DNA from: Candidatus Omnitrophota bacterium
Lineage (GTDB): Bacteria > Omnitrophota > Omnitrophia > Omnitrophales > Aquincolibacteriaceae
Length of the DNA stretch: 64,000 nt
Assembly: GCA_043732705.1 (NCBI GenBank)
Contig: JAYTHE010000002.1
Coordinates: 191,608 to 255,607, forward strand
Direction: 5' to 3'
Both the position numbers and the translations under genes were made by a program. Each line of letters opens with the position of its first letter. The stretch's first letter is position 1. Under the pieces are notes generated by a model. That model was not told the DNA's origin. It saw only the letters and a program-made list of their open reading frames with translations, and searched no databases. Shown here piece after piece: positions 11,442 through 62,988 of this stretch.

Positions 11442-12668
11442 TTACTTTAAATTTCGAATGCGATTGATGGCCTCAATAACGTTTTCACGGAAGCCAAAAG
11501 AGCTGAGGCGGAAATAGCCTTCACCACTTGGTCCAAATCCCGCGCCCGGGGTTCCAACAACATTGATTTTGTTGAGCAGTAAATCAAAGAAATCCCATGA
11601 ACCCATGCCGTTGGGTGTTTTGAGCCAAACATAAGGGGCATGAATTCCGCCAAAAGCCTTAATGCCGGCAGCTTTGAGACCTTCCCGGATGAGTTTTGCA
11701 TTTTCCATGTAATAAGCAATGACATCCACGACTTCTTTTTTGCCTTGGGGGCTATAAACTGCTTCCGCTCCGCGTTGAATCGGATAAGAAACACCGTTAA
11801 ACTTTGTGGATTGTCGCCTATTCCAAAGTGAGTGCAAAGAAACTTTTTCGCCTTTTTCATTTTTCGCCATCAAATCTTTAGGAATAACTGTGAACGCACA
11901 GCGTGTTCCTGTAAACCCGGCTGTTTTTGAAAAACTGCGAAACTCAATTGCAACATCACGGGCGCCCGCAATTTCAAAAATAGAATGAGGCAGAGAAGCG
12001 TCAGCTATAAAAGCTTCATAAGCCGCATCAAAAAGAATAATCGCATCATTTTTTTTCGCGAAGGCGACCCAGCCTTCCAAATCTTTTTTATCAAGCACCG
12101 TACCTGTGGGATTGGCAGGAGAACATAGGTAAATTAAATCGACGCGTTCTTTTGGAAACGCAGGTTTGAAATTATTTTCTGCTGTGGCCGGCATATAAAC
12201 AAAATTTTCATAGCGCCCATCTTTGTAGTTTCCGGATCGGCCTGCCATGACATTAGTATCCACATAAACAGGATAAACCGGATCCACTACCGCGATTTTA
12301 GAATCAAGGCTAAATATTTCCTGAATATTGCCACAGTCGCATTTGGATCCGTCAGAGACAAAAACTTCGCCCGCTTCAATTTTTGCGCCACGGCTTTGGA
12401 AGTCATTTTTTGCGATAGCTTCACGCAAAAAATCATAGCCTTGCTCCGGGCCATAACCGCGGAATGTTTTGGCATCGCCTAATTCATCAGTCGCTTTTTT
12501 GATCGCATCACGAACTGATGCAGGTAAGGGAAGCACAACATCGCCAATTCCAAGACGAATAATTTTTGCAGTTGGATTTTTTGTTGAAAACTCTTTAACC
12601 CGTCGGCCGATTTCCGGAAAAAGATAACCCGCCTGCAATTTCTGAAAATTTGAATTGATTTTTGCCAC
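11442..12668 (-). CDS. dapL: LL-diaminopimelate aminotransferase
   Basis: The N-terminal [14 protein letters not shown] is characteristic of DapL. The protein is a 408-aa class I PLP aminotransferase ([15 protein letters not shown] lysine region). Confidence 0.8.
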
Positions 12669-12837
12669 AATAAAATCCCCTGTAAACTTTAAAATAATGC
12701 CGATATAAAAGAAGATGGATTATAGCTAAAGGCTTGGGTCTAACCAGCTTATTTTAAATGACTTGAAGCATTTAATTAAAAAAGATTGATATAGAAAGCT
12801 ATATATGTCAAAATATAACTAATTATAGTAATTAATA

Positions 12838-14682
12838 GTGATAAATATGCAGAACACACCTCGATTTCTACAAAATCTTAAAAGGCTTAGGCAATTCTTT
12901 AAAGAATTGAATCTTGAGCCGGTTCATTTATTTTTACCGTCGCTGCTTGCTTTGGCAGCATCTATTTTTGAAGGGATTACCTTTTCTTTACTGGTGCCGA
13001 CAATTCGCGGTTTGATGGAGGCAAATTTTAGCTTTGTTGATTCCATCAAAGTGATAGGTTCCTTTACGCGCTTTTTTCCTGAAATTTTTTATAATCGTAA
13101 CTCCGCGATTTTTGCATTTTTGATCTCATTAATAGTTTTAAGCGCTATTTCAAAAAATATATTTGCGTATGTTTCTTCAGTACTTGTTTCCAATCAAGTT
13201 CGGCGCCTAAGCCATGAAATTCGCCGAATCATTTTTAATTCATATATGGATTTCAACAAAGCTTTCTTTGATAGTAATAGTACGGGACATCTGCAAAATA
13301 TTTTAATTGGCTATACTGAACAAATCGCAAATCAGTTTAGATCATTGCACGCCGCTCTTTTTGGGATTTTTAGTTTAATTGTTTATTTAGTCGTTATGGC
13401 GACGATGTCCTGGAAAGTAACGCTTTTTGCGCTTGTCGTTTTCCCAATTATGTTTTTTTCATTTCAAAAGCTCATTGTGACAATTCGACAAGAATCAAAA
13501 AAATTCTCCGAAGCATTTTCCTTGCTTGGAAAAAAAATCTCAAATGCGCTTTCATGTGTGCTTCTGGTCAAAGCATCATGTTCAGAAGATCGCGAAAAGA
13601 AATGGTTTGCGCATATCAGCGAGGAGGTTCGCAGGGCCCAGCTAAAAATAGACCATCGAACTCTTTTGATTGCGCCCGTACAAGAAGTGTTTCTGTTAAT
13701 TATGCTGATTGTCCTGGTTGGCTTTATGGCCTATTTAATTGTTCACGAAAAAGAGGGGCGATTGTCATCGTACCTTGTCTTTTTTGTGATTTTGCGCCGC
13801 GCTATGTCAAGCATGGGAAGTATCACGGCGATTCAAGGATCGATCGCATCGGTTATGGGGCCTTTGAAGGAAGTTATGACCGTGGTTGAGACTCGTAATC
13901 AGCACCAGGAGAAAACAGGTGTTTTGCCCTTGCTTAGCTTTAAAAATAAAATCGAATTTAAGAATCTAACATTTTCCTATCTTGACCGTGAAGTCCTTCA
14001 GAAAATAAGTTTTGAAATACAAAAGGGACAAATGGTTGCCATCATCGGCAGAACAGGCTCGGGCAAGTCGACTTTGGCGCAGCTTCTCATGCGTTTTTAT
14101 GATTCTCCACGAGGCGCCATTTTGATTGATGGGCAAGATATAGGAGATTTTCAAACCTCCGCGCTTCGTAGGAAAATTGCTTATATTTCTCAGGAAAGTT
14201 ATTTTTTTGACACAAGCATTGAAATCAATCTTAAGTACGGTTGCTTACACGAGCTATCTGAAGCCGAAGTTGATTCTGCTTTGGAAAAGGCACAGCTAAA
14301 AGACTTGATCGCAAAGCTACCGCATGGGATTAAAACAAAAATTGGAGAAAGAGGCGTTCAGCTTTCCGGAGGTGAAAAACAGCGCTTGTCTTTGGCGCGC
14401 GCCATATTAAAAAACCCGGAAATTTTAATTTTAGACGAAGCAACCAGTGCCATGGATTCACAAACTGAAAAATTAGTTCAAGCATCCATTGCGGAGGCTG
14501 CGAAAGGGCGCACATCCATTGTCATTGCGCATCGGCTTACCACGATTCAAAAAGCTGATGTGATTTTAGTTTTGGAGCATGGACGACTTGTTGAGAGAGG
14601 TTCTTTTGCCGAACTTATGAAAGCAAACAGCAGTTATTTTAAAGTTTTTTGGAATTCTCAAAGTACAGATGAAACAAATTAG
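12838..14682 (+). CDS. ABC transporter, fused permease and ATPase (MsbA/lipid export-like)
   Basis: Six N-terminal TM helices followed by an NBD with GRTGSGKSTL, LSGGEKQRLSLARA and ILILDEATSAMD. Confidence 0.85.
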   Translation: MINMQNTPRFLQNLKRLRQFFKELNLEPVHLFLPSLLALAASIFEGITFSLLVPTIRGLMEANFSFVDSIKVIGSFTRFFPEIFYNRNSAIFAFLISLIVLSAISKNIFAYVSSVLVSNQVRRLSHEIRRIIFNSYMDFNKAFFDSNSTGHLQNILIGYTEQIANQFRSLHAALFGIFSLIVYLVVMATMSWKVTLFALVVFPIMFFSFQKLIVTIRQESKKFSEAFSLLGKKISNALSCVLLVKASCSEDREKKWFAHISEEVRRAQLKIDHRTLLIAPVQEVFLLIMLIVLVGFMAYLIVHEKEGRLSSYLVFFVILRRAMSSMGSITAIQGSIASVMGPLKEVMTVVETRNQHQEKTGVLPLLSFKNKIEFKNLTFSYLDREVLQKISFEIQKGQMVAIIGRTGSGKSTLAQLLMRFYDSPRGAILIDGQDIGDFQTSALRRKIAYISQESYFFDTSIEINLKYGCLHELSEAEVDSALEKAQLKDLIAKLPHGIKTKIGERGVQLSGGEKQRLSLARAILKNPEILILDEATSAMDSQTEKLVQASIAEAAKGRTSIVIAHRLTTIQKADVILVLEHGRLVERGSFAELMKANSSYFKVFWNSQSTDETN

Positions 14683-15154
14683 ATGAAAAAGGCTTCCCAT
14701 ATAAACTGCGTTTGCTCGACTATTCCGCCGCACATGTTGAAGCATATCGCCCGCAAGGGAAGTGATGTTCAAAAAAACCGGGCTTTGCAAACTTTGGCTG
14801 CAACCGAACAAATGCGCGGCCGGCGGAATGTTTTACAGAAAACATCTTTTTTGTCGCCGGGGTCACATACCAGTAAGAATCGGCTTGTTTATGATGCCCG
14901 TGATCATGAAACTCTTCCCGGGGTGTTAATCAGGAACGAATCGGATGTTTACGATTTTTATCAAAAGGTTTATGGGCGCAATTCTCTGGATAATCAGGGG
15001 CTTACTTTGCGCTCAAGCGTTCATTATAGCCGCGATTATGACAATGCTTTTTGGGAATGGCTCGGAAATGGTCTACGGTGACGGTGACGGTGATGGCGAT
15101 TTGTTTGGGCCTTTTACGGAATGTCTCGATGTCATCGGACATGAGCTAATATGA
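14683..15154 (+). pseudogene. Remnant of a protealysin-like M4 (thermolysin-family) metalloprotease, frameshifted and truncated after HEL
   Basis: LRSSVHYSRDYDNAFW | [13 protein letters not shown] ... DVIGHEL aligns with thermolysin [29 protein letters not shown] ... VVAHELTHAV. The two halves are in different frames (extra G near 15055) and a stop follows HELI. The roughly 170 C-terminal residues are absent. N-terminal CSTIPPHMLKHIA resembles the propeptide motif of signal-less protealysin-like proteases. Confidence 0.8.
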
Positions 15155-15263
15155 GCCCATCTATGTGTTGAGTTCAAATGATGCATCGAAGACCATTACA
15201 TTTAAAAGAATAAAATTGCCCGAAAAAGAGAGATTAAGGGGCTTTTCAAATAAAACATTTACA

Positions 15264-15602
15264 ATGAAAGAATCCGACCTGTTAAAAAAAATTCGTGTTC
15301 CTTCTCAAAATCTGTCCGCTGTTTTTGAAGGGTTGGCATTAGTCAAAATGTTTGATTATTCGCTTAAGTTTGGTGAAATTAAAATCGACGTTTCCGCACG
15401 AGACCAATTTTTAAAAAAGCTTCCGGTAGTTCGCCGAGTTAAGGCCGGTAAGTATCATATTTTGATTACTTATGATCCCGATGTTATATATGGGGGCAGT
15501 CCAAGATCTATTCTTTTAGAGAACTTTGATGGACATACAGGGTTAAGCCTGACGCTTCCGGCCGATGATCAAACGAGAATTTATGTTGTTCAAGAAGATT
15601 AA
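15264..15602 (+). CDS. Small hypothetical protein (112 aa), possibly an emfourin-like inhibitor partner of the M4 protease
   Basis: Lies immediately next to the M4 remnant. From the internal ATG at 15264 it encodes 112 aa, the size of emfourin-family protealysin inhibitors. The assignment rests on context and size only. Confidence 0.35.
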   Translation: MKESDLLKKIRVPSQNLSAVFEGLALVKMFDYSLKFGEIKIDVSARDQFLKKLPVVRRVKAGKYHILITYDPDVIYGGSPRSILLENFDGHTGLSLTLPADDQTRIYVVQED

Positions 15603-15855
15603 ATCTCTTGGTGGTGGTTTATGGTTTACCCCTAAAAGGACGATAAAGTAGCATGTGCCTAAATCAACTTGTCATGCCGAAGCCTCGGCGAAGACAGATC
15701 AAATTGTCGCGCCGAAGCTTTGCGATGGCGGATGTATCGCGCCGAAACTTGAGTGTAGGTGGATGGCCTAACACTTGCCCTGAGCAGCGTCGAAGGGGTG
15801 TCCCGTTTCCGAAGTTTGAAGATAGTAGAAGCAGGCTTCTGATGGAGGAAGAGTT

Positions 15856-16869
15856 GTGAACCATATTCAAATAATAGAAGAGCTTCAGCAAAAGATAGAA
15901 ACTGTATTAAACCCTATTCTGCCACCAAATACAAAATTGGCACTTTTGGACTTCCCTAGCTATCCAAATGTGGGTGATAGCGCGATTTGGGTGGGGGAAA
16001 TGGAATATTTTAAAAAAAGAAAATTGAAAATCGCTTATTCCTGTACTGTTGAGGCCTATTCAAAGGAAAGACTATTAAAGAAAATAGGTGAGAGGGGCAT
16101 TATTTTAATTAGCGGCGGCGGAAACTTTGGCGATTTGTGGGAGAGACACCAGCTGTTTAGAGAAAAAGTAATATGTGATTTTCCTAACCATCGCATTGTT
16201 CAGTTGTCCCAAAGTATTCACTTTAAAGATAAGCAAAAATTAGAAAGAGCTAAAAGCATAATTAATGAACATTTTGACTTTTACCTGTTAGTTAGAGACA
16301 AGGAGAGCTATAAGCTCGCGCGAGAAACATTTAGTGCCAAATTGGTCTTATGTCCGGATATGGCTTTTATGTTGGGAAGCCTTACTAGCTTTCGAAGAAA
16401 AGCTAAAAAAAATGTGTTTGCATTAATTAGAACAGACAAAGAAAGCATTAATAAAATAAATCAATCTTCTTTTTCTGCTTTGTGCGATTTTGATCCACAA
16501 CTAGCTATTGTTATTCAGGATTGGGACACAGGCAATAACACTTTAAATAGAATTCAAACGGCGCTTTGTTCTGGATTTGACTCTAGATTTGAAATGCCGA
16601 CTTTTCTAAAGAACGAAATTGCAAGGCTGAGACTACTGAAAGGAATAAATCAATTAAGTCAAGGGGATGCTATTCTGACAGATCGTTTGCATGGCTACAT
16701 ACTAAGTCTGCTGCTGAATATTCCGCATATTTTCCTAGACAATAGTTATGGGAAACTTAGTGCGTTCTACGATACATGGCTCAAAGAATCAGAACTTACA
16801 TTTTTTGAAAAAAACTTTGAAAAAGCTCTCGATAAGATTAGACGTGGGGTGCTTAAAAGTCCGCTGTAG
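15856..16869 (+). CDS. Polysaccharide pyruvyl transferase (CsaB/WcaK family)
   Basis: NVGDSAIWVGE and GGGNFGDLW N-terminal motifs and a C-terminal TDRLHGYILSLLLNIPHIF motif. GTG start. Confidence 0.7.
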   Translation: MNHIQIIEELQQKIETVLNPILPPNTKLALLDFPSYPNVGDSAIWVGEMEYFKKRKLKIAYSCTVEAYSKERLLKKIGERGIILISGGGNFGDLWERHQLFREKVICDFPNHRIVQLSQSIHFKDKQKLERAKSIINEHFDFYLLVRDKESYKLARETFSAKLVLCPDMAFMLGSLTSFRRKAKKNVFALIRTDKESINKINQSSFSALCDFDPQLAIVIQDWDTGNNTLNRIQTALCSGFDSRFEMPTFLKNEIARLRLLKGINQLSQGDAILTDRLHGYILSLLLNIPHIFLDNSYGKLSAFYDTWLKESELTFFEKNFEKALDKIRRGVLKSPL

Positions 16870-16991
16870 CACAGGGCTAGGCTTTAATGTCAATTCGTAT
16901 GAACTTGGGGGCCATTTAACTTGGGTAATTTATAAAAAAAAAGTATAAAAAAATAATTTGCATTATTACTCACAAAGGAAGTGCCGATCGA

Positions 16992-17726
16992 TTGCAGGTA
17001 ATCAAAGATACCTGGCTGTCGAGGCCATTGCCATCAGACCACCTTGTTCTTTTTGTTTATGGCAATGATGGTGGCGTTGTGCCACGACTAGAAGGACAAA
17101 ACCTTTATCTTGAAGCGAAAGAAAGTTGGGCCAATTTACCAAATAAAATTTATGATCTTTATAAATTTTGTGTGAATAGCTATGATTTTGAGCACCTTTT
17201 TAAAATCGATGACGACGTTTATGTTGCATCACAATCTTTAGTCCGGTATCCTAAAAATCAGATTGATTACGGAGGACGTTTTTTTAATGACCCAGACTTC
17301 AGATCGAATCCAATTGCTTATGAGAAACATCGAAAGCATCGGGCAAAACGGGGGCTGCCAGTTTATGAAGGAAAGATTCCTGCTGAGTATGCCTACGGAC
17401 AATGCTATTTATTAAGCTATCACCTTGCGAAACAAATAGTGAGCCTTTCAAGAGAAGGGCTTGAAGATTGCTTTTTGAATGGTGGGTTGGAAGACGTTAT
17501 GGTCGGAAAAGTCGTTGAGCAATTGAGGGTGAGTGGTCTTCACGTAGAGGTAGATAATTGGAGATCGAGCATTTGGAAGCGCTACTTTATAGCACCCTTT
17601 TGCGAAGCTGATTTATCAAAAGAACAAATTCTGGCACGTCATAAAATTTCACCATTTAGGTTTATTATTTCTATTTGGAATGTTTCACGCAATGTTCTAA
17701 GGCGGTTTTTAACTTATTTAAAATAG
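16992..17726 (+). CDS. Putative glycosyltransferase (GT31/fringe-like, DDD motif)
   Basis: VIKDTW (compare R-x-x-IR-x-TW) and FKIDDDVYV motifs. TTG start. The N-terminus is short. Confidence 0.4.
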   Translation: MQVIKDTWLSRPLPSDHLVLFVYGNDGGVVPRLEGQNLYLEAKESWANLPNKIYDLYKFCVNSYDFEHLFKIDDDVYVASQSLVRYPKNQIDYGGRFFNDPDFRSNPIAYEKHRKHRAKRGLPVYEGKIPAEYAYGQCYLLSYHLAKQIVSLSREGLEDCFLNGGLEDVMVGKVVEQLRVSGLHVEVDNWRSSIWKRYFIAPFCEADLSKEQILARHKISPFRFIISIWNVSRNVLRRFLTYLK

Positions 17727-18068
17727 CCATGAGTGATCCGTATTTCCATAATTACCCCTTGTCACAACGGAGAAAAATGAATCATAGAATATGTTAAAAG
17801 TTATTTGCTGCAGATATGTGGAGAGTTGGAGGTATTGATGATTGGAACTCCAATCCGATGAGATGCCATTTTGTGAAATTATTTTGGGTGCCAATGCTAT
17901 TTTAGAAAAGCATAAGTGGCAAAAACTTAGAGTTTCGTCTTCTATGATCAGGACTGTAAAGACGAACTTGAAAAAATATTTTCGCGTAATCTGAGCTTTA
18001 TCTGATGAATGTAGGTAGATCGTTAATGCTTTTGTCGTTTCGTAGAACAAGCTTTAGTCGAGGATTAT

Positions 18069-18839
18069 ATGAAAGTAATAGAGGGGATACTGAAAATTAG
18101 AAATTTGTTTAAAAGGCTAGTACGCCGCTTTTTTGTCTGGTGTTTTATTGGGTTTGAGCTTTTTCCTGAAAAAAGCATGGGATTACAAATAAGTAATGAG
18201 CCCAATACAATTCCAAAAATATTTGTGATTAATCTGCCTAGGTCTGTAAAACGGCGTGCATTTATGGAAGAACAGCTTGGAAAGTTGTCGTTGCCGTATG
18301 AGTGGGTGGAAGGAGTAGATGGCTATTCTTTAGATCAAAAGACTTTGGATAGTTATTGTTCTTGGGTTACACCTTTGTGTGCTGGTAGAAAGTTGAAGCC
18401 CGGGGAAATTGGTGCTGCTCTAGCTCATTATAAAATTTGGAAAAAGATAAAAGATGAAAATATGCCATGCGCTCTAATTTTTGAAGATGACGCAGTGGTT
18501 GGCGAAGACTTTAAGAAGATTATTCTAAAATGGAAAACCTATCCAAAAAATACAGGCATCTTGAACTTTAGAACAGAGGCAAAAAAAAGATCCGGGGGGC
18601 CCTTAATTCATAAAGATTATAGAATATGTAGGTTTGAAAGCGATAAATTTATGAATGGACTGGTCGCTTATTTTATTACAAATGATACCGCGAAAAAACT
18701 TTTAAAGAAGGCGCATCCTATGAGAACCAGTTGTGACGGGTTGACTTCTGAAATTAAAGGGGTTGTTAAGTATGGTATTGTCCCTGAGCCGGTTCATCTC
18801 GCTAATTTTTCTTCCGATATATGGAATAGCACCTCGTAA
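18069..18839 (+). CDS. Glycosyltransferase family 25 (LPS/LOS biosynthesis, Lic2B/LpsA-like)
   Basis: KIFVINLPRSVKRRAFMEEQL ... WVEGVDG ... GEIGAALAHYKIW is the GT25 N-terminal signature. Contains A8 and G6 homopolymer tracts (18581-18599). Confidence 0.7.
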   Translation: MKVIEGILKIRNLFKRLVRRFFVWCFIGFELFPEKSMGLQISNEPNTIPKIFVINLPRSVKRRAFMEEQLGKLSLPYEWVEGVDGYSLDQKTLDSYCSWVTPLCAGRKLKPGEIGAALAHYKIWKKIKDENMPCALIFEDDAVVGEDFKKIILKWKTYPKNTGILNFRTEAKKRSGGPLIHKDYRICRFESDKFMNGLVAYFITNDTAKKLLKKAHPMRTSCDGLTSEIKGVVKYGIVPEPVHLANFSSDIWNSTS

Positions 18840-18867
18840 AAAGACATATTTATAAACTTTCTGAATT

Positions 18868-20019
18868 TTGAAAAAAGTGAAAAAAAATCTTTTAAAAAAA
18901 ATCTTCGTCTTTGAGCCCGATTGCTCAGGGCATCATCTTTATTACCTTAATTTGATTGTAAAGTCTTTGCTCCGTTGCCAAATTATATGGGGAGGAACTG
19001 CGTTGGCTATTGCTGAAGCGGAAAAGTGTTTTCCCGAAATCTTTCAAAAAATTAGTGAGGTTAAAATTATTTCAAAAAGCAGTCTGCAGGTTAGTAAGCT
19101 GCTGGCTCTAATTCTGAGTGTTTGGCAAACAAGGCCAAACACAATTTTTTTATGTTACGGGGACCAGCTTGTGTATTTAATTCCAATTTTGAGACTCTTG
19201 ACACTGTTCAAAAGCATGTCTGTGCAGTTGATTTCCTTTCGCGGAAGGTTTTGCCCTAGTGTTTATCCTAGCTGGCTGGGAGGGGTTAAGAAGTTTCTAG
19301 TAACTTTGTATTTAAAATTAGGGATAATTCAAAAAATATTCCTTGTCGATGATTTGGTGTATAAAGATTTCAGCCAAATAAGTTATGGGCTTGAAAACAA
19401 AGTTATTTTTTTGCCGGACCCCATGCCAAATTGGCAACCTATCTCTAAAGGCGAGGCGCGTCGATATTTAAAATTAAGCGAGAATAAAAAATATATTCTC
19501 GGTTTTGGAAGTTTAAGCCCCAGGAAGGGGCTTTCGGATCTTCTTGAGCTAGTAGAACAGAAAATGTTGCCCCAACATGCTTGTTTGCTTTTAGTTGGAA
19601 AACCAGATGTTGAAACCAATAAGCTGATTGAGAAAAAAAAATCCACGATTTTGGATTTTGAAAACAGAGTAATTTTGCGAACGGAGTTTGTACAAGAAAA
19701 AGATATTTCCTTTTATTTTGCTGCTTCGGATGTTGTAATGGCAAATTATATAGATCATGTGGGGTCCAGTGGGGTGGTTTTAAAAGCCTTGGCAATGAAG
19801 CGGCCCGTAATAGGGCCTAATTGCGGTTGGATCGGATGGGCGATTGGACAAGCTAATGTTGACTGGTTATATGTGCATGGTGACAAGAAGGATTTTCGGA
19901 ACAAGCTATTTGATGCTTTGGAAAAAGAAGAGGTGTTGATTGCGGATTGCTTGGCAGAGTTTAAGAGTGCTCATTCTGAGGGAGGTTTTGTGAAAATTCT
20001 CCAAGAGAATTTGGGTTAA
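18868..20019 (+). CDS. Glycosyltransferase-like protein (GT-B fold, GT1/GT4-like C-terminal half)
   Basis: The C-terminal region (VGKPDV ... FYFAASDVVMANYIDHVGSSGVVLKALAMKRPVIGP) resembles the nucleotide-sugar-binding half of GT4 enzymes. Confidence 0.4.
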   Translation: MKKVKKNLLKKIFVFEPDCSGHHLYYLNLIVKSLLRCQIIWGGTALAIAEAEKCFPEIFQKISEVKIISKSSLQVSKLLALILSVWQTRPNTIFLCYGDQLVYLIPILRLLTLFKSMSVQLISFRGRFCPSVYPSWLGGVKKFLVTLYLKLGIIQKIFLVDDLVYKDFSQISYGLENKVIFLPDPMPNWQPISKGEARRYLKLSENKKYILGFGSLSPRKGLSDLLELVEQKMLPQHACLLLVGKPDVETNKLIEKKKSTILDFENRVILRTEFVQEKDISFYFAASDVVMANYIDHVGSSGVVLKALAMKRPVIGPNCGWIGWAIGQANVDWLYVHGDKKDFRNKLFDALEKEEVLIADCLAEFKSAHSEGGFVKILQENLG

Positions 20020-20021
20020 GT

Positions 20022-20834
20022 ATGATTCGAACCGGCATCACAAAAACAAGGTCGAATCAAGCAGCTTATACTTTCTGTCTGCTTTTAACAGCTTCAATTG
20101 ATCCAAAAAACTGTGCTTTTTTGAAGAGGTCAGATCCCAAAATCAGAGAAAAAGATTATTTAAATGCTTTAAAGAAATGGATTGATAAAACCAAATACCC
20201 GATCGTTTTTTGTGAAAACTCAGGTTTTGATATTTCCCAAATTAATAAAACAGCAGAAGAGGGAAGAAAATTGGGGCGTGAAATAGAGGTTATTCAGTTT
20301 GATGGAAATAATTATCCTCGAAATTTTGGAAAAGGGTTCGGTGAGATGTTAATTATAGGTCATGCAATGTGTCACTCAAAGCTGATTCAAAAATCAAAAT
20401 ATATAATAAAGGTAACGGGTCGATTTTTTGTTAGCAATATAAACTCGATCGTTGGGGGGCTGACACAAGCAAACGATTTGTTTGCGATAACATCTTGTCG
20501 GGAGAAAGAATTAGTTCCCTCAGTGTTTTTTTGTGGGACGACAGTTTTTTTCACCAAGTGTTTGTTGCCGTGGCAGCATAAGCTAAACGATCAGACTGGG
20601 TTTTACTTTGAGCACGCTCTAAAACAGGCTTGCGATACCGCTCAGAAAGAAGGTTTTAAGTGCTTTGAATTTGACAAGCCTATTTTGCTATGTGGCTACA
20701 GGGGAACTGACAATAAACTGATCTATGGTTTTTCTGAGTGGGAGGCGAGTGTGCGTGTTAAGTTAAAAAAAGTAGTACCACAGCCTGTGTTTGAATTTTT
20801 TAGGTCTTTGCTGAGTTTTTTTAAAAAAAATTAA
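20022..20834 (+). CDS. Hypothetical protein inside the polysaccharide locus
   Basis: Codon usage is consistent with neighbours and gene junctions are tight. No recognisable motif. Confidence 0.4.
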   Translation: MIRTGITKTRSNQAAYTFCLLLTASIDPKNCAFLKRSDPKIREKDYLNALKKWIDKTKYPIVFCENSGFDISQINKTAEEGRKLGREIEVIQFDGNNYPRNFGKGFGEMLIIGHAMCHSKLIQKSKYIIKVTGRFFVSNINSIVGGLTQANDLFAITSCREKELVPSVFFCGTTVFFTKCLLPWQHKLNDQTGFYFEHALKQACDTAQKEGFKCFEFDKPILLCGYRGTDNKLIYGFSEWEASVRVKLKKVVPQPVFEFFRSLLSFFKKN

Positions 20835-20878
20835 AATTAATAATAAAATATTATTTCAAATTCCCATTAAATTTCAAG

Positions 20879-22186
20879 ATGAACAAAAACAAAAATTTTA
20901 ACAGTGGTTTTTTCAGACCAATAGCAATGAGCCTTTTTACACTTATGAATTTTGTGGGTGCTTTTAAAGAGGGGGCAGGTGTCGAAGGTTTTGGCTCAGG
21001 GAACCCTTTAAAGGATTATACTTTTTTGACCGTGTTGGGAATTGTTGTGTGTTTTGGAATTATTTTTTTATTTTCCAATACTTTCGAGCGTCGCGCAATG
21101 ATTGAAAGGATGTTTTCTCTCTCTTCGTTGATTTGTTTTGGAATATACTTTGCGCTGTGTCAGTTTTTAATGGGTTCCGAAGCAGGTTTTTCCAAGCTTA
21201 GGTATTTTTGGATGCTTGATCTTCCTGCGTGTTTTATTTTTGTTAGTCTTATAAGAAAGCCACAGGATTTAAAAGCATTTCTGTGGTTCATTGTCTTGTT
21301 TTCATGTTTTTTGACCATGGTGGCATTTATTTACAAAACACAAAATCCGTTTTTGTTTTTATCCTCGGGCAATAATGAGGGGCGCACTTGGACTTATATT
21401 CAGTATGGCGCCTTGTCCTGTTCGGCGGGGTTAATCGCTTTAATTTGGAGCGTCGAAAGCACGGGCAATTTATTTTCTAAGATTGTTTCGTTATTCATAT
21501 GTCTCTTAAACTTTGCGGGCACGATTTACTCAGGTGAGCGCGGGAGTATTTTATTTGTTCCCATTATTTTTATTTGTTATCTTTTTATGAGCGGTCGGCT
21601 TATCAGGCTAAATTCCTGGAAAGCATTTTGGATCGGTTTTATTATTATTATTATTTCATTTTCTGCTTTTAGCTTTATTCAGTCGGAGAAAGGGGAAATG
21701 TTTCGAAAGCGTTTTGAGAAACTTGGTGTGACGCAAGATTCTGATGACAAAGATGCCCGTCTTGATATTCAAGGGGAATTTGGAGAAGGGATAAGACAAG
21801 CGACAAAAAAAAGCCCAATTTTTGGACTAGGTCCGGGTAATTATTTTGGATTTAATCAAGGCGGCTATCCGCACAACATGATTCTTGAAACAGGTGGTGA
21901 ATTGGGGTTGATAGGGCTAGCAATTTACTTTTTTATTTTAAGTCGAGTTTGGAAAGGAGTTAGGTGTATTAAGAACTTTATGCAGCCAGACTTATTTTAT
22001 GCTTATTTTGTCGTCTTTTTGTTGTATTTCTTTAGAACTTTAAAGACCGGAGATATTGCGGGTAGTCGGTATTTTTGGTTATTTATAGCTTCGTGGCTTT
22101 TATTTTCGAACATAAGGAATCTGAAGAAGCCAGGTAAGTCGGGCGGGAAAACGTTAAGCCAAGAATTGGTTGTGGCCAATGAATAA
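20879..22186 (+). CDS. O-antigen polymerase/ligase-like membrane protein (Wzy/WaaL superfamily)
   Basis: About ten TM helices and a large loop near the C-terminal third. This topology is typical of Wzy_C-domain proteins, and the gene sits inside a glycosyltransferase cluster. Confidence 0.55.
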   Translation: MNKNKNFNSGFFRPIAMSLFTLMNFVGAFKEGAGVEGFGSGNPLKDYTFLTVLGIVVCFGIIFLFSNTFERRAMIERMFSLSSLICFGIYFALCQFLMGSEAGFSKLRYFWMLDLPACFIFVSLIRKPQDLKAFLWFIVLFSCFLTMVAFIYKTQNPFLFLSSGNNEGRTWTYIQYGALSCSAGLIALIWSVESTGNLFSKIVSLFICLLNFAGTIYSGERGSILFVPIIFICYLFMSGRLIRLNSWKAFWIGFIIIIISFSAFSFIQSEKGEMFRKRFEKLGVTQDSDDKDARLDIQGEFGEGIRQATKKSPIFGLGPGNYFGFNQGGYPHNMILETGGELGLIGLAIYFFILSRVWKGVRCIKNFMQPDLFYAYFVVFLLYFFRTLKTGDIAGSRYFWLFIASWLLFSNIRNLKKPGKSGGKTLSQELVVANE

Positions 22187-22919
22187 AGTAAATGTAATTT
22201 TATCTAATTTGATAAAAATTGATTTGTTAACTGGCGTTCGTATCAAGAGCAGGCAAGATCTTATTCGACTAGGGAAAGGTGCTTCATGGATCATTCCTGC
22301 TACTCTTATTAAAAAGGAATCAATTTGCTACCTAGTTGGTGCCGGTGAAGACATTACGTTTGATGTAGATTTGGCTAACAAGTATTCTGATCATGTCTTT
22401 ATTTTTGATCCTACTCCACGTGCTAAGAAGCATTATGAAAATGTTTGTAGCAATGTTCAAACTGCCTTGGTGCAAAAGACAAATATAGTTTCAAAGGCTA
22501 CTCTTCAAAAAATAAAATTTATAGAGAGAGGTCTTTGGAGCAATGATTGTGAAATGAAGTTTTTTGCGCCTAAGGACCCAGGACATGTTTCTCACTCTTT
22601 GCTAAACTTGCAGGGGACAAAGGATTTTTTTATTGCAAAAGTTAATCGATTGTCCTCGTTAATGAATGAGCTTAAGCATGATTCGTTGGATTTGTTGAAA
22701 ATTGATATAGAAGGTGCTGAATATGAAGTGATTAAGACAATTTTAGAAGACAAGATTTTTATTCGTATTTTGTGTGTTGAATTTGATGAGGCATACAATC
22801 CCTTAGATGGAAAGTATGCTTTTCGCATCAAATCAGCTATTTCTAGTTTAATTAATCATGGTTATGAGCTTGTTGCGTTGTCATCTTGGGGGAATTATAC
22901 ATTCCTCAAAGTAACATAA
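22170..22919 (+). CDS. FkbM-family methyltransferase
   Basis: YLVGAGEDITFD ... FIFDPTP ... LKIDIEGAEYEV pattern of Methyltransf_21/FkbM proteins. Confidence 0.65.
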   Translation: MWPMNKVNVILSNLIKIDLLTGVRIKSRQDLIRLGKGASWIIPATLIKKESICYLVGAGEDITFDVDLANKYSDHVFIFDPTPRAKKHYENVCSNVQTALVQKTNIVSKATLQKIKFIERGLWSNDCEMKFFAPKDPGHVSHSLLNLQGTKDFFIAKVNRLSSLMNELKHDSLDLLKIDIEGAEYEVIKTILEDKIFIRILCVEFDEAYNPLDGKYAFRIKSAISSLINHGYELVALSSWGNYTFLKVT

Positions 22920-22925
22920 GTCTCG

Positions 22926-24056
22926 ATGCGCATCTTATTAATTCATAACATTCTCTGGAGTCATTATAAAGCCGCTGTTTTTTCGGCGTTATCGAGGGCG
23001 TGCAAAGATAAAAGCTACTCCTTTAAGGTTATTCACTTGGCTGAGACGGAAGGTATCCGAAAGCGGTTTGGTGGTATTGACATAGAGTTGCATCAATATA
23101 ATTACGAAGTTCTTCATAAAGGTTCGCACAACGACTTTAAGTTTTTCGAAAAATTAGCCAAACTTATAAAGGTCGTAAAAAAGGAAAAGCCTGATTGTTT
23201 GTCAATAGCCGGTTATTATGATTTTGCTTGTTTGCTGGCGGCTTATTGGGCAAAGTTTCATGGTATCAAAATTGTTATGATGTCTGATTCCGCTGAGGCA
23301 GATCGCGCGCGGAATGTAATTTGGGAGAAAATAAAGAGTTTGCTGATTAAACCCTTTGACCTTTTCTTTTGCTATGGTTCAAAAGCGAGGGAATATTTGC
23401 TTAAATTAAGGGTGAAAGATGACAAGATTAAAATTCGTTTTCAATCCACGCAGAATGAAATTATCCGAAATATTTATCTAAAATCAAAAAATAAACTAAG
23501 GGACCATTTCTCAGAAAAGAATTTTATTTATGTTGGAAGGCTTTCACCGGAGAAAAACATACCAGTTTTGCTTCATGCTTTTGCAGCGGTTAGGAAGTTA
23601 AACTGGGGGCTAGTCTTAGTTGGTGATGGGCCGCAAAGACGCGAGTTAGAAGATTTGGTGAAAAAACTTGCTTTAGAGCAAATATATTTTACAGGTCCCA
23701 AGTCTTGGCATGAAGTTGTCACATATTATGCCTCTGCGGATGTTTTTGTTCTTCCCAGCTTGTCGGAACCCTGGGGGTTGGTGGTTAATGAGGCGATGCT
23801 TTGCGATCTACCAGTGATTGTTTCTAATCGATGTGGATGTGCAATGGATCTTGTTCGAGAGGGGGTGAATGGTTTTGTTTTTGACCCTTTTGATTCCCGG
23901 CAATTGGAGCGATTAATGAGGGACTTTGCGGATGATAATTATGATCTGGTTCAAATGGGGAGGCGATCGAATGAAATTATTCAGAAATTCTCTCCCGAGA
24001 ATTCGGCCCGCCAGATGCTGGAAGGGATAGAGATGCTTTTGCGGGATGCAAAATGA
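22926..24056 (+). CDS. Glycosyltransferase family 4
   Basis: FIYVGRLSPEKN ... ADVFVLPSLSEPWGLVVNEAMLCDLPVIVS is the EX7E/GT4 signature. Confidence 0.85.
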   Translation: MRILLIHNILWSHYKAAVFSALSRACKDKSYSFKVIHLAETEGIRKRFGGIDIELHQYNYEVLHKGSHNDFKFFEKLAKLIKVVKKEKPDCLSIAGYYDFACLLAAYWAKFHGIKIVMMSDSAEADRARNVIWEKIKSLLIKPFDLFFCYGSKAREYLLKLRVKDDKIKIRFQSTQNEIIRNIYLKSKNKLRDHFSEKNFIYVGRLSPEKNIPVLLHAFAAVRKLNWGLVLVGDGPQRRELEDLVKKLALEQIYFTGPKSWHEVVTYYASADVFVLPSLSEPWGLVVNEAMLCDLPVIVSNRCGCAMDLVREGVNGFVFDPFDSRQLERLMRDFADDNYDLVQMGRRSNEIIQKFSPENSARQMLEGIEMLLRDAK

Positions 24057-37791: not shown

Positions 37792-39837
37792 ATGCCTTCT
37801 TCGCATGAAGAAGATAATTCAGATGTTAATTTAGAGGTCGATGATTTAGGGCCGGTGTGGAAACGTTTTTCCAAGCTTTTAGTGCGTTTCTATCCCATGG
37901 TTTTAATTTATATTACCGCGCTTTCATTGGGAACGGGAGTTTGGGCACAGCTTCAAACGCCTCTTTTCCAAGCCGTTGCCACTATTTTGGTGGATCCCAC
38001 CCTTGTTTCGAATAGCGCAGAAAAGCAAAGTCTTGAAAACCTTGCTTTGCAGGCAACTCTTATCGAGAGCCCCGGAGTCCTGAATCGCGTGATTGACCGT
38101 TATAACTTAAGTTCCATTTATCCTTTCAATAAATCAGATAATGCAATGGCGATGCTGCAGGATCAAATGACAGTCAAGCCGAACAGCAAGAGCAAAACGA
38201 TTGAAATCAGTTTTCTTTTTATTTCCGGAGAAGAAGCGGCAAAAATTGCCAATGCCATTGCCGAAACTTACGTTTATTCCAGTGAGGAAAAGAGTCAAGG
38301 CACGACCCAAGAGTCGCTTGCTTCGCTTCAGCTTAATTTTGCTCAGGAAATGGCAAAGCAAGAAGAAGTTAAAGCTAAGATCGAAGAGTTTAAAAAACAA
38401 TTTCCAGAAATGGAAGATGAGACGAGTGATGCTAAGCAGGTTGAGTATTTTAAGTCAGAGCTGGCGAAGTCAGACGCGCAATTAATCGATCTGCGAACTA
38501 AAATTCTTGAAATCGAACAATACAAAAAAGATAATGGGACGATTTATAATCATCCCTATATTCTCGAAGATACCGTGATTGTGCGTCAAATGGAGCGGCT
38601 TCGGCGTGCGGAAAGTGACCTCGAAGAATTAAAGCGCCAATTCCGCGATATGCATCCCGATGTGATTTCAGCCCAGGCGCGCTTTGACAGTTTAAAAAAA
38701 TCAATGGAACAGGATCAAGAGCATGTTTATGTGCAGTTGAAACTGGAGCTTAAGACCCTTGAATCCACTCGCGAAAGAATGAAGGAGCAGCTTACGCAAC
38801 TTAAAGGGGATTCAAGAAAATTTGATCCGCAGAAAATGAAGCTTAAAAGCTTGTTGTCCGAAGATGAAGCTATCGGAAAAACAATTAAATTAATTCAAGA
38901 CCGGATGTCGGTGGCTTCAGTCGAGGGCGGATTGAAACGGCCCGGCGTTGAAATCCTGAACCGTGCGAAAGCTCCGGAAACTTCCTACTGGCCCAATAAG
39001 CCTAAATTAATTGGCGGCGCGGTTATTTTGGGATTGGTTTCAAGTCTCGGGCTTTTTTTTCTTTATTGCTATTTTGACCGCTCAATTCGAACTTACGAAG
39101 ATGTTGAGCTTGTCACCGGAAAGCTTTTCTTGGGAGATTTGCATTTTGCAAAAGTAAAAAAAGGTTTGCTTTACCCTGAGTTTCCAAATGATAAGTCGTT
39201 TATTTTGTTTACGCACGGTCTGCGGCTGATCGCGACGAATATTGAATTTGTGTTGTCCGACCGGCATCAGAAATGTGTTCTTTTTACAAGCGCCATTCCG
39301 GGCGAAGGAAAGAGTTTTGTTTCTTTTCATATCGCGCAGTCCATGGCACGCCAAGGGAAAAAAGTCATTTTGATCGATGCCGATTTTTGCCAATCGTCCC
39401 TGAGAGATAAAATTCCAAGAACGGAATGTGAAACTTATTTACAAGAGTATTTGTCGGGAAGCGCCGAGATCGGCGACATTATCGAGGGCACAGATAATGA
39501 GCTTATTCACTTTATCCGTTCAGGCAGCCGGTCTTCGTTTAGCGCGCCGCATGCCTTAAAGTCAAATCGCATGAAAGATTTAATAACTGTGCTAAAAGAA
39601 AATTACGATTACATTTTAATTGATACGCCGCCGGTTTTGCCGGTCAATGATACTTTAGCGTTAAGCACATTGGTAGACATGCGAGTGATTGTTGTGCGTT
39701 GGGGTTCGACGCATCGTGATTTAGTTCGGAAAGCAGTAGCGAAAATTTCTCCGGGACAACTCATTCTCGGAGGAATTGTTTTGAATCAAGTCAAAGAGAC
39801 GAATGAAAAAGGCTACCATATATATCGGCCCAACTAA
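37792..39837 (+). CDS. Polysaccharide co-polymerase / BY-kinase (Wzc/GumC-like)
   Basis: An N-terminal Wzz-like TM domain and a long coiled coil, then a C-terminal P-loop ATPase (Walker A' FTSAIPGEGKSFVS, Walker B ILIDTPPVLPVNDT) typical of CpsD/Wzc tyrosine kinases. Confidence 0.8.
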   Translation: MPSSHEEDNSDVNLEVDDLGPVWKRFSKLLVRFYPMVLIYITALSLGTGVWAQLQTPLFQAVATILVDPTLVSNSAEKQSLENLALQATLIESPGVLNRVIDRYNLSSIYPFNKSDNAMAMLQDQMTVKPNSKSKTIEISFLFISGEEAAKIANAIAETYVYSSEEKSQGTTQESLASLQLNFAQEMAKQEEVKAKIEEFKKQFPEMEDETSDAKQVEYFKSELAKSDAQLIDLRTKILEIEQYKKDNGTIYNHPYILEDTVIVRQMERLRRAESDLEELKRQFRDMHPDVISAQARFDSLKKSMEQDQEHVYVQLKLELKTLESTRERMKEQLTQLKGDSRKFDPQKMKLKSLLSEDEAIGKTIKLIQDRMSVASVEGGLKRPGVEILNRAKAPETSYWPNKPKLIGGAVILGLVSSLGLFFLYCYFDRSIRTYEDVELVTGKLFLGDLHFAKVKKGLLYPEFPNDKSFILFTHGLRLIATNIEFVLSDRHQKCVLFTSAIPGEGKSFVSFHIAQSMARQGKKVILIDADFCQSSLRDKIPRTECETYLQEYLSGSAEIGDIIEGTDNELIHFIRSGSRSSFSAPHALKSNRMKDLITVLKENYDYILIDTPPVLPVNDTLALSTLVDMRVIVVRWGSTHRDLVRKAVAKISPGQLILGGIVLNQVKETNEKGYHIYRPN

Positions 39838-61314: not shown

Positions 61315-62988
61315 ATGTTAATTCAACCGCGCAATAATTTAGGGCATGGTGTGGGGCTGCGCTCCGAGCATTTCAATGAAATTCTTGAAACCAAACCCAA
61401 GGTTGATTGGTTTGAAGCTATTTCTGAAAACTTTATGGATACGGAAGGGCGCCCTCTCCATATTTTAGAAAAAATTCGCGCGGATTATCCGGTGGTACTG
61501 CACGGAACCTCTTTATCGATCGGTTCCGCGGGCGGTCTGAGCGCTGTTTATTTGGAAAAACTCAAAAAATTAGCTGACCGAATTCAGCCGGCAATGGTAT
61601 CAGACCATTTATGCTGGGCTGATCATGGCGGTAAACGTCTTTTTGATTTGCTGCCGCTGCCTTTCACTGAAGAATCATTGAAGCTCGTTGTTAGGCACGT
61701 TGATCAATTGCAAAGTTTTTTAGGTCGCCGTATTTTGCTTGAAAATGTTTCCGCCTATATTGCTTTTAAACATTCTGAAATGACGGAATGGGATTTTCTT
61801 GACCAGGTCGCGAAGCGAAGCGGCTGCGGTATTTTGCTCGATGTGAATAATATTTATGTGAATAGTTTTAATCACGGCTTCGACCCGCTTGAATATTTGA
61901 ACGGCATATCACCCGAACACGTTTTTCAATATCACATCTCCGGCCATACTGATAAAGGCAAATTTCTTTTCGATACGCATGTCGGTGAGATAATTGATCC
62001 GGTCTGGCAGCTATATGCGACCGCCGTCCGGCGGTTCGGTGACATTTCATCGCTGATTGAATGGGATTCCGAAATCGGCAGCTTGGATCAATTAATTGAA
62101 TTGAATGAAAAAAGCAGAGCCATTGCGAAACAATCTCAGACCGGAGATCGGAGACCGGAGGCCGGAGGGCTAAGAGCTTCCAGCCCTCGTGTCTCGGGTC
62201 TAGGGCCTAAACTTGATCATGTTCAATCCATGTTTGCCTCAGAAATATTGAAGAAATCAAAAACGGCTTTAGCTGAGCTGTTAGAAAAACAGGCCGGTGA
62301 TCCGGGAATTGAACGTGTTGAGGTTTATGCGGAAGGTTATCCGGCGCGCATCCGCGATGCCCTGCTCGAATGTTATCCCGCGATCCATAAAGTTTTAGGC
62401 GAGGGTGTTTTTACGGAGCTGGCGCTTGAATTTGCGGGCTCGCGCAGTTTTGATCATTATAATTTGAGCCGTGCCGCGGATCACTTTCCCGTTTTTTTAC
62501 AGATGAGTTCCCGCAACGAAGAGTTTCCTTTTCTGAGAGATTTGGCGCAGCTTGAAAAATCCGTTCAACGGTCCTTTCATGCCGAAATAAAAGCTTCCGC
62601 GACCGGCGTGGATTTTGCGGAGAAAGCCGCCAGTGACGGTGAAAATGTGGTTTTTCAATTTCAGCCGCATGTTTTTGCCGTGCGTTCATTTTGGCCGATT
62701 CTTGATATTTGGAATGCGCGCAATCTTCCTCCTGATCAAATTAAGATTCAAGTTGAAGGCCGCGCCCAGGCTGTTTTGATTTACCGCCGCGGCGAACAGG
62801 TTGTCTGCCAAAAAGCAGAGGCGCTGGAGGCCGCTATTTTGCAAAGTTTGATGGATGGTAATCCGCTGGGAAAAGCTTTTGATGTGATGACGGAAGCTGA
62901 TGATATGACCCCCGTTCAAGGTTGGTTTTCAAGTTGGCTTGCTAATGGGCTGATTGCTAGCTTTGAGCAGATAGCAGATAGCAAATAG
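61315..62988 (+). CDS. MNIO enzyme (DUF692) fused to its DUF2063 partner (BufB-BufC-like fusion)
   Basis: The N-terminal 270 aa (GHGVGLRSEHFNEIL ... VDWFEAISENFMD ... YPVVLHGTSLSIG ... LLENVSAYI) are the DUF692/MbnB-like TIM-barrel signature. The C-terminal 280 aa have DUF2063-like character. The linker (QTGDRRPEAGGLRASSPRVSGLGPKL) is encoded by the dispersed heptameric repeat. Confidence 0.6.
   Translation: MLIQPRNNLGHGVGLRSEHFNEILETKPKVDWFEAISENFMDTEGRPLHILEKIRADYPVVLHGTSLSIGSAGGLSAVYLEKLKKLADRIQPAMVSDHLCWADHGGKRLFDLLPLPFTEESLKLVVRHVDQLQSFLGRRILLENVSAYIAFKHSEMTEWDFLDQVAKRSGCGILLDVNNIYVNSFNHGFDPLEYLNGISPEHVFQYHISGHTDKGKFLFDTHVGEIIDPVWQLYATAVRRFGDISSLIEWDSEIGSLDQLIELNEKSRAIAKQSQTGDRRPEAGGLRASSPRVSGLGPKLDHVQSMFASEILKKSKTALAELLEKQAGDPGIERVEVYAEGYPARIRDALLECYPAIHKVLGEGVFTELALEFAGSRSFDHYNLSRAADHFPVFLQMSSRNEEFPFLRDLAQLEKSVQRSFHAEIKASATGVDFAEKAASDGENVVFQFQPHVFAVRSFWPILDIWNARNLPPDQIKIQVEGRAQAVLIYRRGEQVVCQKAEALEAAILQSLMDGNPLGKAFDVMTEADDMTPVQGWFSSWLANGLIASFEQIADSK
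62137..62207. repeat. Composite inverted copy of the heptameric repeat forming the MNIO-DUF2063 linker
   Basis: GACCGGAGATCGGAGACCGGAGGCCGGAGGG-ctaagagcttccagccctcg-TGTCTCGGGTCTAGGGCC. The two halves are in opposite orientations around a GAGGGCT/AGCCCTC hairpin. Confidence 0.75.

Follow-up and report, generated by a model that had tools for sequence, protein, structure and literature searches.

The segment at positions 14683 to 15602 of the window (the whole 64-kb stretch of DNA analyzed here) begins with a protease gene that breaks off within its HExxH motif and continues, on the same strand, with a small open reading frame (ORF). The question raised by this locus is what that small ORF represents. 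In Serratia proteamaculans, the genes for protealysin and emfourin form one operon (PMC9505478), and the same source states, citing Chukhontseva et al. 2021, that emfourin inhibits protealysin or thermolysin 1:1. The original prediction took the small ORF for an inhibitor of this type, orphaned by the decay of its protease. We conclude instead that the segment very probably consists of two truncated genes that meet head to tail at one breakpoint (15148/15150), with the small ORF most likely being a non-functional remnant of the second gene. As the small ORF is the leftover tail of a different gene and no inhibitor, the locus reads as ordinary genome decay.

The protease remnant

The left part of the segment starts in frame 1 of the forward strand (14683 to 15054) with an N-terminus that lacks a signal peptide, followed by the PLN propeptide motif (CSTIPPHMLKHI) and the beginning of the catalytic domain as far as SSVHYSRDYDNAFW. 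It was delimited from the ORF list, from Pfam matches to PLN_propep and Peptidase_M4, and from a tblastn comparison of 119 protealysin homologs with the window. The PLN_propep match (PF16485) spans residues 11-46 with an E value of 9e-8 and 32.2 bits, the cut-off being 28.1. Similarity to the 119 homologs extends from about 14683 to GHEL (15137-15148) at 40-50% identity. Among 5.8 billion proteins searched, the closest non-self relatives of the remnant are metagenomic M4 or protealysin-like proteins with 43-52% identity.

The frame changes once along this stretch. A GGG run on the forward strand (15053-15055) has one extra G, which causes a +1 frameshift, so that the window reads NAFW-(G)-NG where homologs have NAFWNG, and the tblastn alignments switch frame at 15050-15056. 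This places the extra G that had been proposed near 15055. The remnant continues on the same strand in frame 2 (15056 to 15154), in which homolog alignments end at GHEL, followed by one isoleucine and a TGA stop (15152-15154). It is represented by two overlapping ORFs, 14683-15081 (frame 1, 132 codons) and 14945-15154 (frame 2), both of them pieces of a protealysin-like N-terminal fragment. Deletion of one G from 15053-15055 fuses the two into a 156-residue product, and solely in this corrected form is Peptidase_M4 (PF01447) matched, with an E value of 3.8e-24 over profile positions 71-139 of 145. The frame 2 part also contains an ACGGTG tandem repeat (3.2 copies, 15075-15093), at which the remnant has two residues more than its homologs (GDGDGDGD).

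Beyond the stop at 15152-15154, genuine protease similarity is absent, the few longer tblastn alignments crossing stop codons with gaps, and none of the 119 homologs finds M4 similarity past about 15196 or anywhere else in the 64-kb window. Likewise, no similarity to Peptidase_M4_C (PF02868) was detected within the window. The left remnant shares with protealysin-like proteases (PLPs; MEROPS M4, PF16485 + PF01447 + PF02868) the PLN propeptide motif, the lack of a signal peptide and the VHYS-type N-terminal catalytic motifs. Unlike them, it is frameshifted and keeps about 156 of about 340 residues, retaining the first His and the Glu of HExxH and lacking the second His, the third zinc ligand and the whole Peptidase_M4_C domain.

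Judged by its sequence, 14683-15154 thus corresponds to ~47% of a protealysin-like M4 protease gene, counted from its 5' end. A remnant that is fragmentary and frameshifted, with an incomplete zinc site and no Peptidase_M4_C domain, is incapable of protease activity, and the HEL-I-stop ending, the +1 frameshift and the lack of M4_C in the window mark the locus as a pseudogene rather than a functional family member. The earlier description of a decayed protealysin-like gene, carrying a propeptide and a partial catalytic domain and stopping just after HEL with its C-terminal domain gone, is borne out by these results, and the pseudogene is real and ordinary.

Upstream of the remnant lies an ABC exporter gene (12838-14682), whose TAG stop codon (14680-14682) immediately abuts the ATG of the remnant (14683). 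The remnant and the exporter gene were probably co-transcribed, and translation of the truncated 132-aa protease product may persist. The two closest protealysin-like genes examined elsewhere are also each divided into two ORFs (L003, 4001-5056, 254 + 87 aa; L004, 1495-2632, 239 + 147 aa), splits that are probably assembly errors.

The small ORF and its parent family

The neighboring ORF had been described as an intact frame of 112 aa. Its frame is indeed intact and adjoins the protease remnant, but the length hinges on taking the ATG at 15264 as the start. The longest ORF begins at a GTG (15165) and encodes 145 aa, and the frame is open from 15150 to a stop at 15600-15602. A word-indexed protein search returned this ORF itself and one 89-aa fragment, so that its true identity surfaced only in an exhaustive profile search. 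In this HMMER search, which covered 1.84 billion cluster representatives, 112 proteins were found, 95 of them at E <= 1e-10, and the ORF almost always fits the last ~140 residues of proteins that are mostly 580-630 aa long.

In the 617-aa protein P0124, for example, HMMER matches residues 471-616 and tblastn aligns residues 465-616 with the window. The tblastn alignments of the family start at 15150, where the window has YEPIYVLSS and the family RYDVLHVLSVD, and remain colinear to the stop codon at 40-50% identity (E 1e-24 to 1e-42 in the alignments inspected); over a longer stretch, YEPIYVLSSNDASKTITFKRIK in the window aligns with RYDVLHVLSVD...VRFQKI in the family. Homology therefore takes in the entire 145-codon ORF and 15 bp upstream of the GTG at 15165, and it begins 114 bp upstream of the ATG at 15264. 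By HMMER, tblastn and these alignments, 15150 to 15602 of the forward strand is a 3' remnant: the final ~150 codons of a gene whose product was a glycoside-hydrolase-like protein of ~600 aa.

The part that is left is the conserved C-terminal domain of ~145 residues, which in the family is marked by the motifs EGLALVKPFEY, LPIVRRVK, TYDP, DFDG and LPAD..RIFV. The ORF matches family members over this domain at E 1e-30 to 1e-46, and all eight invariant residues of the domain are retained. The domain ends at most 15 residues from the C-terminus in 191 of 213 fetched family proteins (162 are at least 450 aa long). It closes a reading frame of at least 585 aa in 16 of the 18 genome loci, which come from Planctomycetota, Armatimonadota, Lentisphaerae, Verrucomicrobiales and Poribacteria. 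Short family entries are mostly partial genes on short metagenomic contigs. The window ORF thus resembles the C-terminal domain of this unnamed family over its whole length, and differs from the family in having neither the signal peptide nor the ~460-residue barrel that every complete member possesses; tblastn detected no other part of the family in the 64-kb window. With the barrel region absent and the upstream sequence derived from the protease, the window holds a fragment of a family member, not a complete one.

The only close homolog of the ORF, P0002 (61% identity), is encoded at 169-624 of a 693-bp ENA contig (L002), where a frameshift interrupts its gene. The first ~55 residues of P0002 lie in another frame and form the same N-terminal extension as in the window ORF, and the contig is too short to show an upstream barrel. 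The frameshift in L002 is either a sequencing error or the sign of another decayed copy. We also considered whether the family might consist of M4 proteases with a C-terminal extension, in which case the locus would be one gene with an internal deletion. This was rejected, as ten members have no M4 Pfam match and protealysin homologs compared with the family by BLASTP had no match in it.

Members of the parent family are proteins of ~580-630 aa with predicted signal peptides, found in Armatimonadota, Planctomycetota, Lentisphaerae, Verrucomicrobiota and Poribacteria. Those members that carry a name are all listed as "hypothetical protein", and neither Pfam nor NCBIfam was found to contain a domain or model for the family. 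An AlphaFold2 model of full-length P0124, built from a 53-sequence alignment (pLDDT 91.6, pTM 0.92), consists of an N-terminal helix, a region in which beta and alpha elements alternate, and a C-terminal domain that combines a long helix with a beta sheet; we read the N-terminal helix as a signal or anchor. In a Foldseek comparison with the PDB, the best matches of this model are GH56 hyaluronidases (2atm, 2j88; E ~1e-5, probability 1.0), followed by GH35 beta-galactosidases and then by GH66, GH5/GH26 mannanases, GH164 and PslG, all with modest TM-scores (0.26-0.47). A sequence-profile match of the family to a PDB entry was not found. The window ORF modeled alone (pLDDT 87.8) has weak PDB matches (E >= 0.13), in most cases with C-terminal beta domains from GH13 and GH42 enzymes.

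The family also has a conserved D-x-E motif (MIDLEHP in P0124 and its relatives; L005-L025), and in one genome the gene is surrounded by GH39, GH13, GH28 and melibiase genes. With moderate confidence, we take the parent to be a glycosidase-like protein of the TIM-barrel type, as yet unclassified and with a predicted signal peptide. The window keeps only its non-catalytic C-terminal domain. PslG (PDB 4zn2), a glycoside hydrolase of an exopolysaccharide cluster that is among the TIM-barrel matches of the parent model, resembles the parent in fold and in context. In contrast to PslG-type hydrolases, the parent family cannot be placed by sequence in any CAZy or Pfam family, and its function is putative. 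The predicted fold would be consistent with a widespread, unannotated and unclassified glycoside hydrolase family, which the parent family may be. This ~600-aa family with its confidently predicted glycoside-hydrolase-like fold is a mildly useful by-product of the analysis.

The 453 bp from 15150 to 15602 contain no internal stop and no frameshift, and since all eight invariant residues are also kept, the glycosidase-like remnant could be recent or under selection. A stand-alone C-terminal domain, kept or exapted after loss of the barrel, would fit this observation, as it would the confident prediction that the domain folds by itself and the existence of a few short family entries (e.g., P0139, 146 aa). 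Such a protein might be translated from the GTG at 15165 or the ATG at 15264, perhaps by read-through from a transcript of the ABC exporter and the protease fragment. Most short entries are, however, the partial genes mentioned above, and in nearly all of the genome loci the domain belongs to a long frame. The 145-codon ORF has neither signal peptide nor catalytic barrel, a scan of 14400-16000 gave no promoter-like site, and no obvious Shine-Dalgarno sequence can be read before the GTG at 15165 or the ATG at 15264.

Furthermore, of the 40 positions that show at least 90% conservation, 7 deviate from the consensus in the ORF, the family median being 1. One other member has as many deviations and none has more, and three conserved prolines are among the losses. 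Against the family HMM, the ORF has the third lowest score of 55, a somewhat unfair comparison in that the other sequences trained the model. We therefore regard a functional stand-alone domain as unlikely. Less likely still is that the remnant has been selected as a stand-alone cytoplasmic protein with a new role, such as binding the polysaccharide of the adjacent gene cluster; if true, this would add an example of a small new gene born at the scar of a deletion. In all probability, the small ORF is a non-functional remnant and does not inhibit a protease.

Junction and origin of the locus

The junction of the two gene remnants can be placed at 15147-15150 from the ends of homology, the reading frames and GC3 (GC at third codon positions). 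Protease homology ends with the CTA of a leucine (15146-15148), and glycosidase-like homology starts, in another frame, with the TAT of a tyrosine (15150-15152), immediately preceded by an in-frame TAA (15147-15149). With homology to one gene stopping at 15148 and homology to the other starting at 15150 in a different frame, the two truncated genes appear to be joined at a deletion or recombination scar, and since the remnants occupy different frames a fusion protein is impossible. The hexamer ATGAGC occurs as a direct repeat on either side of the junction (15141-46 and 15151-56), perhaps as a vestige of the recombination, perhaps by chance.

Base composition changes at the same point. GC3 is 0.46-0.48 in the protease remnant and 0.32 in the glycosidase-like remnant, which in this respect is like the downstream pyruvyl-transferase and galactosyl-transferase genes (0.33). 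On a larger scale, the 12-24 kb stretch of the window is low in GC (~0.37), the rest having 0.44-0.47. This low-GC segment (12000-24000) overlaps the ABC exporter gene and the first part of an exopolysaccharide cluster, and the protease remnant forms a higher-GC islet within it.

The two genes are not usual neighbors. M4 similarity is absent from all 216 family proteins that were fetched, and no protealysin gene lies near the family genes in the 18 genome loci (L005-L022) or in 3 further loci (L023-L025). From the lack of M4 in the family and of protealysin at the family loci it follows that the adjacency of protease and glycosidase-like sequences is peculiar to this locus.

These observations suggest the following origin. 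The left part is the 5' ~47% of a protealysin-like M4 gene, from the propeptide to the His-Glu-Leu of HExxH, and it also carries a +1 frameshift; the right part is the 3' ~25% of an unrelated ~600-aa glycoside-hydrolase-like gene of which the C-terminal domain alone is left. The simplest event to connect them would be one deletion or illegitimate recombination, at the border of the low-GC exopolysaccharide cluster, in which the protease gene lost its 3' half and the glycosidase-like gene its first ~460 codons, together with any sequence that separated the two. For genes lying side by side, we infer a loss of at least about 2 kb, and it is pure speculation that a real emfourin gene was part of the lost interval. 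The 145-codon ORF would then be open because it is the intact tail of a former frame, with the GTG or ATG being fortuitous. Neither a close relative of the organism nor one with an intact locus was found (a scan of genome contigs did not recover even the source genome, and a metagenome scan with the ABC exporter returned homologs of at most 44% identity without synteny), and for this reason the ancestral arrangement and the deletion are inferred rather than observed. Pseudogenes left by deletion are a known phenomenon, of which this locus is a new instance.

A junction and a frameshift of this kind may also arise in assembly, through a chimeric join or a homopolymer error in a metagenome-assembled genome (MAG). 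The source of the window may be a MAG, its composition shifts at the junction, and the public protealysin genes in L003 and L004 are split by frameshifts as well. Nevertheless, the Logan assembly of SRR23617244 is 100% identical to the window over 1320 bp that include the frameshift, the stop, the neighbor ORF and the junction, which means that over this stretch the products of two different assembly pipelines do not differ by a single base. Moreover, both flanks of the junction run into long, coherent gene arrays on one contig, and the GGG run is too short for a typical homopolymer error. An assembly artefact is thus a very improbable explanation, and we retain a genuine junction of two truncated genes.

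Comparison with emfourin and the surrounding genes

There was some reason to expect an inhibitor at this position. The small ORF is co-oriented with a PLP gene and lies directly downstream of it, as emfourin (M4in, PF20242) does in the Serratia proteamaculans operon. The metagenomic protealysin locus L004 has a 108-aa PF20242 gene directly downstream of its protease, whereas L003 has no emfourin gene downstream, and a 112-aa product from the ATG at 15264 would be roughly of this size. The size match, which had been called exact, depends on the choice of start codon, given that the frame is open and homology runs from 15150, well before the ATG at 15264.

At the level of sequence, the resemblance is not seen. 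The ORF does not match the PF20242 profile at E <= 1, nor do 15 members of its domain family at E <= 10, whereas the L004 emfourin, serving as a positive control, is recognized from the same library at 1.3e-22. When the comparison of the small ORF with emfourin was made by BLASTP, the L004 protein gave an E value of 0.39, and tblastn of this protein against the whole 64-kb window gave nothing. Pfam and NCBIfam scans of the small ORF likewise returned no match at E <= 1. In a PDB sequence search, the best match of the small ORF was PilO (E ~0.6), which we judged to be chance. Emfourin does not appear among the best 50 Foldseek PDB matches of the ORF model, the presence of an emfourin chain in that library being unconfirmed; a PDB sequence search with the L004 emfourin found no entry, and hence the fold comparison has no positive control.

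The ORF differs from emfourin, in addition, by having well-supported relatives of its own. Its homologous region reaches upstream of the 112-aa start, and its homologs are ~600-aa proteins that never occur beside protealysin genes at the loci examined. That the small ORF is an emfourin-type inhibitor left behind by protealysin decay, perhaps now controlling another protease, is hardly credible, and at the level of sequence and profile this proposal is refuted. Position beside a protease gene and a matching length are no evidence for an inhibitor. Annotating the small ORF as an emfourin-type inhibitor would be wrong, and the main value of the present analysis lies in this correction, with little biology attached.

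The preferred reading, two truncated genes at one breakpoint, places the glycosidase-like remnant at the 5' border of an exopolysaccharide cluster (15856-40000), which includes genes for a pyruvyl transferase, a galactosyltransferase, a WcaI-like glycosyltransferase and a Wzc-like tyrosine autokinase (37792-39837). The 253-bp intergenic region before the pyruvyl-transferase gene is GC-rich compared with its surroundings and contains three direct repeats of 30-35 bp (15663-15750). Their core, TGTCRYGCCGAARC, has 3 matches where 0.09 would be expected and occurs nowhere else in the window.

An Rfam scan of the 64-kb window gave no rRNA or other match. A TonB-dependent receptor is encoded in the window, which indicates that the organism has an outer membrane. 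At the far end, a 557-aa ORF (61315-62988) carries at its N-terminus a BufB-type MNIO (bufferin maturase) domain (NCBIfam NF050167; 352 bits, cut-off 310), which suggests a RiPP (bufferin-like) locus there.
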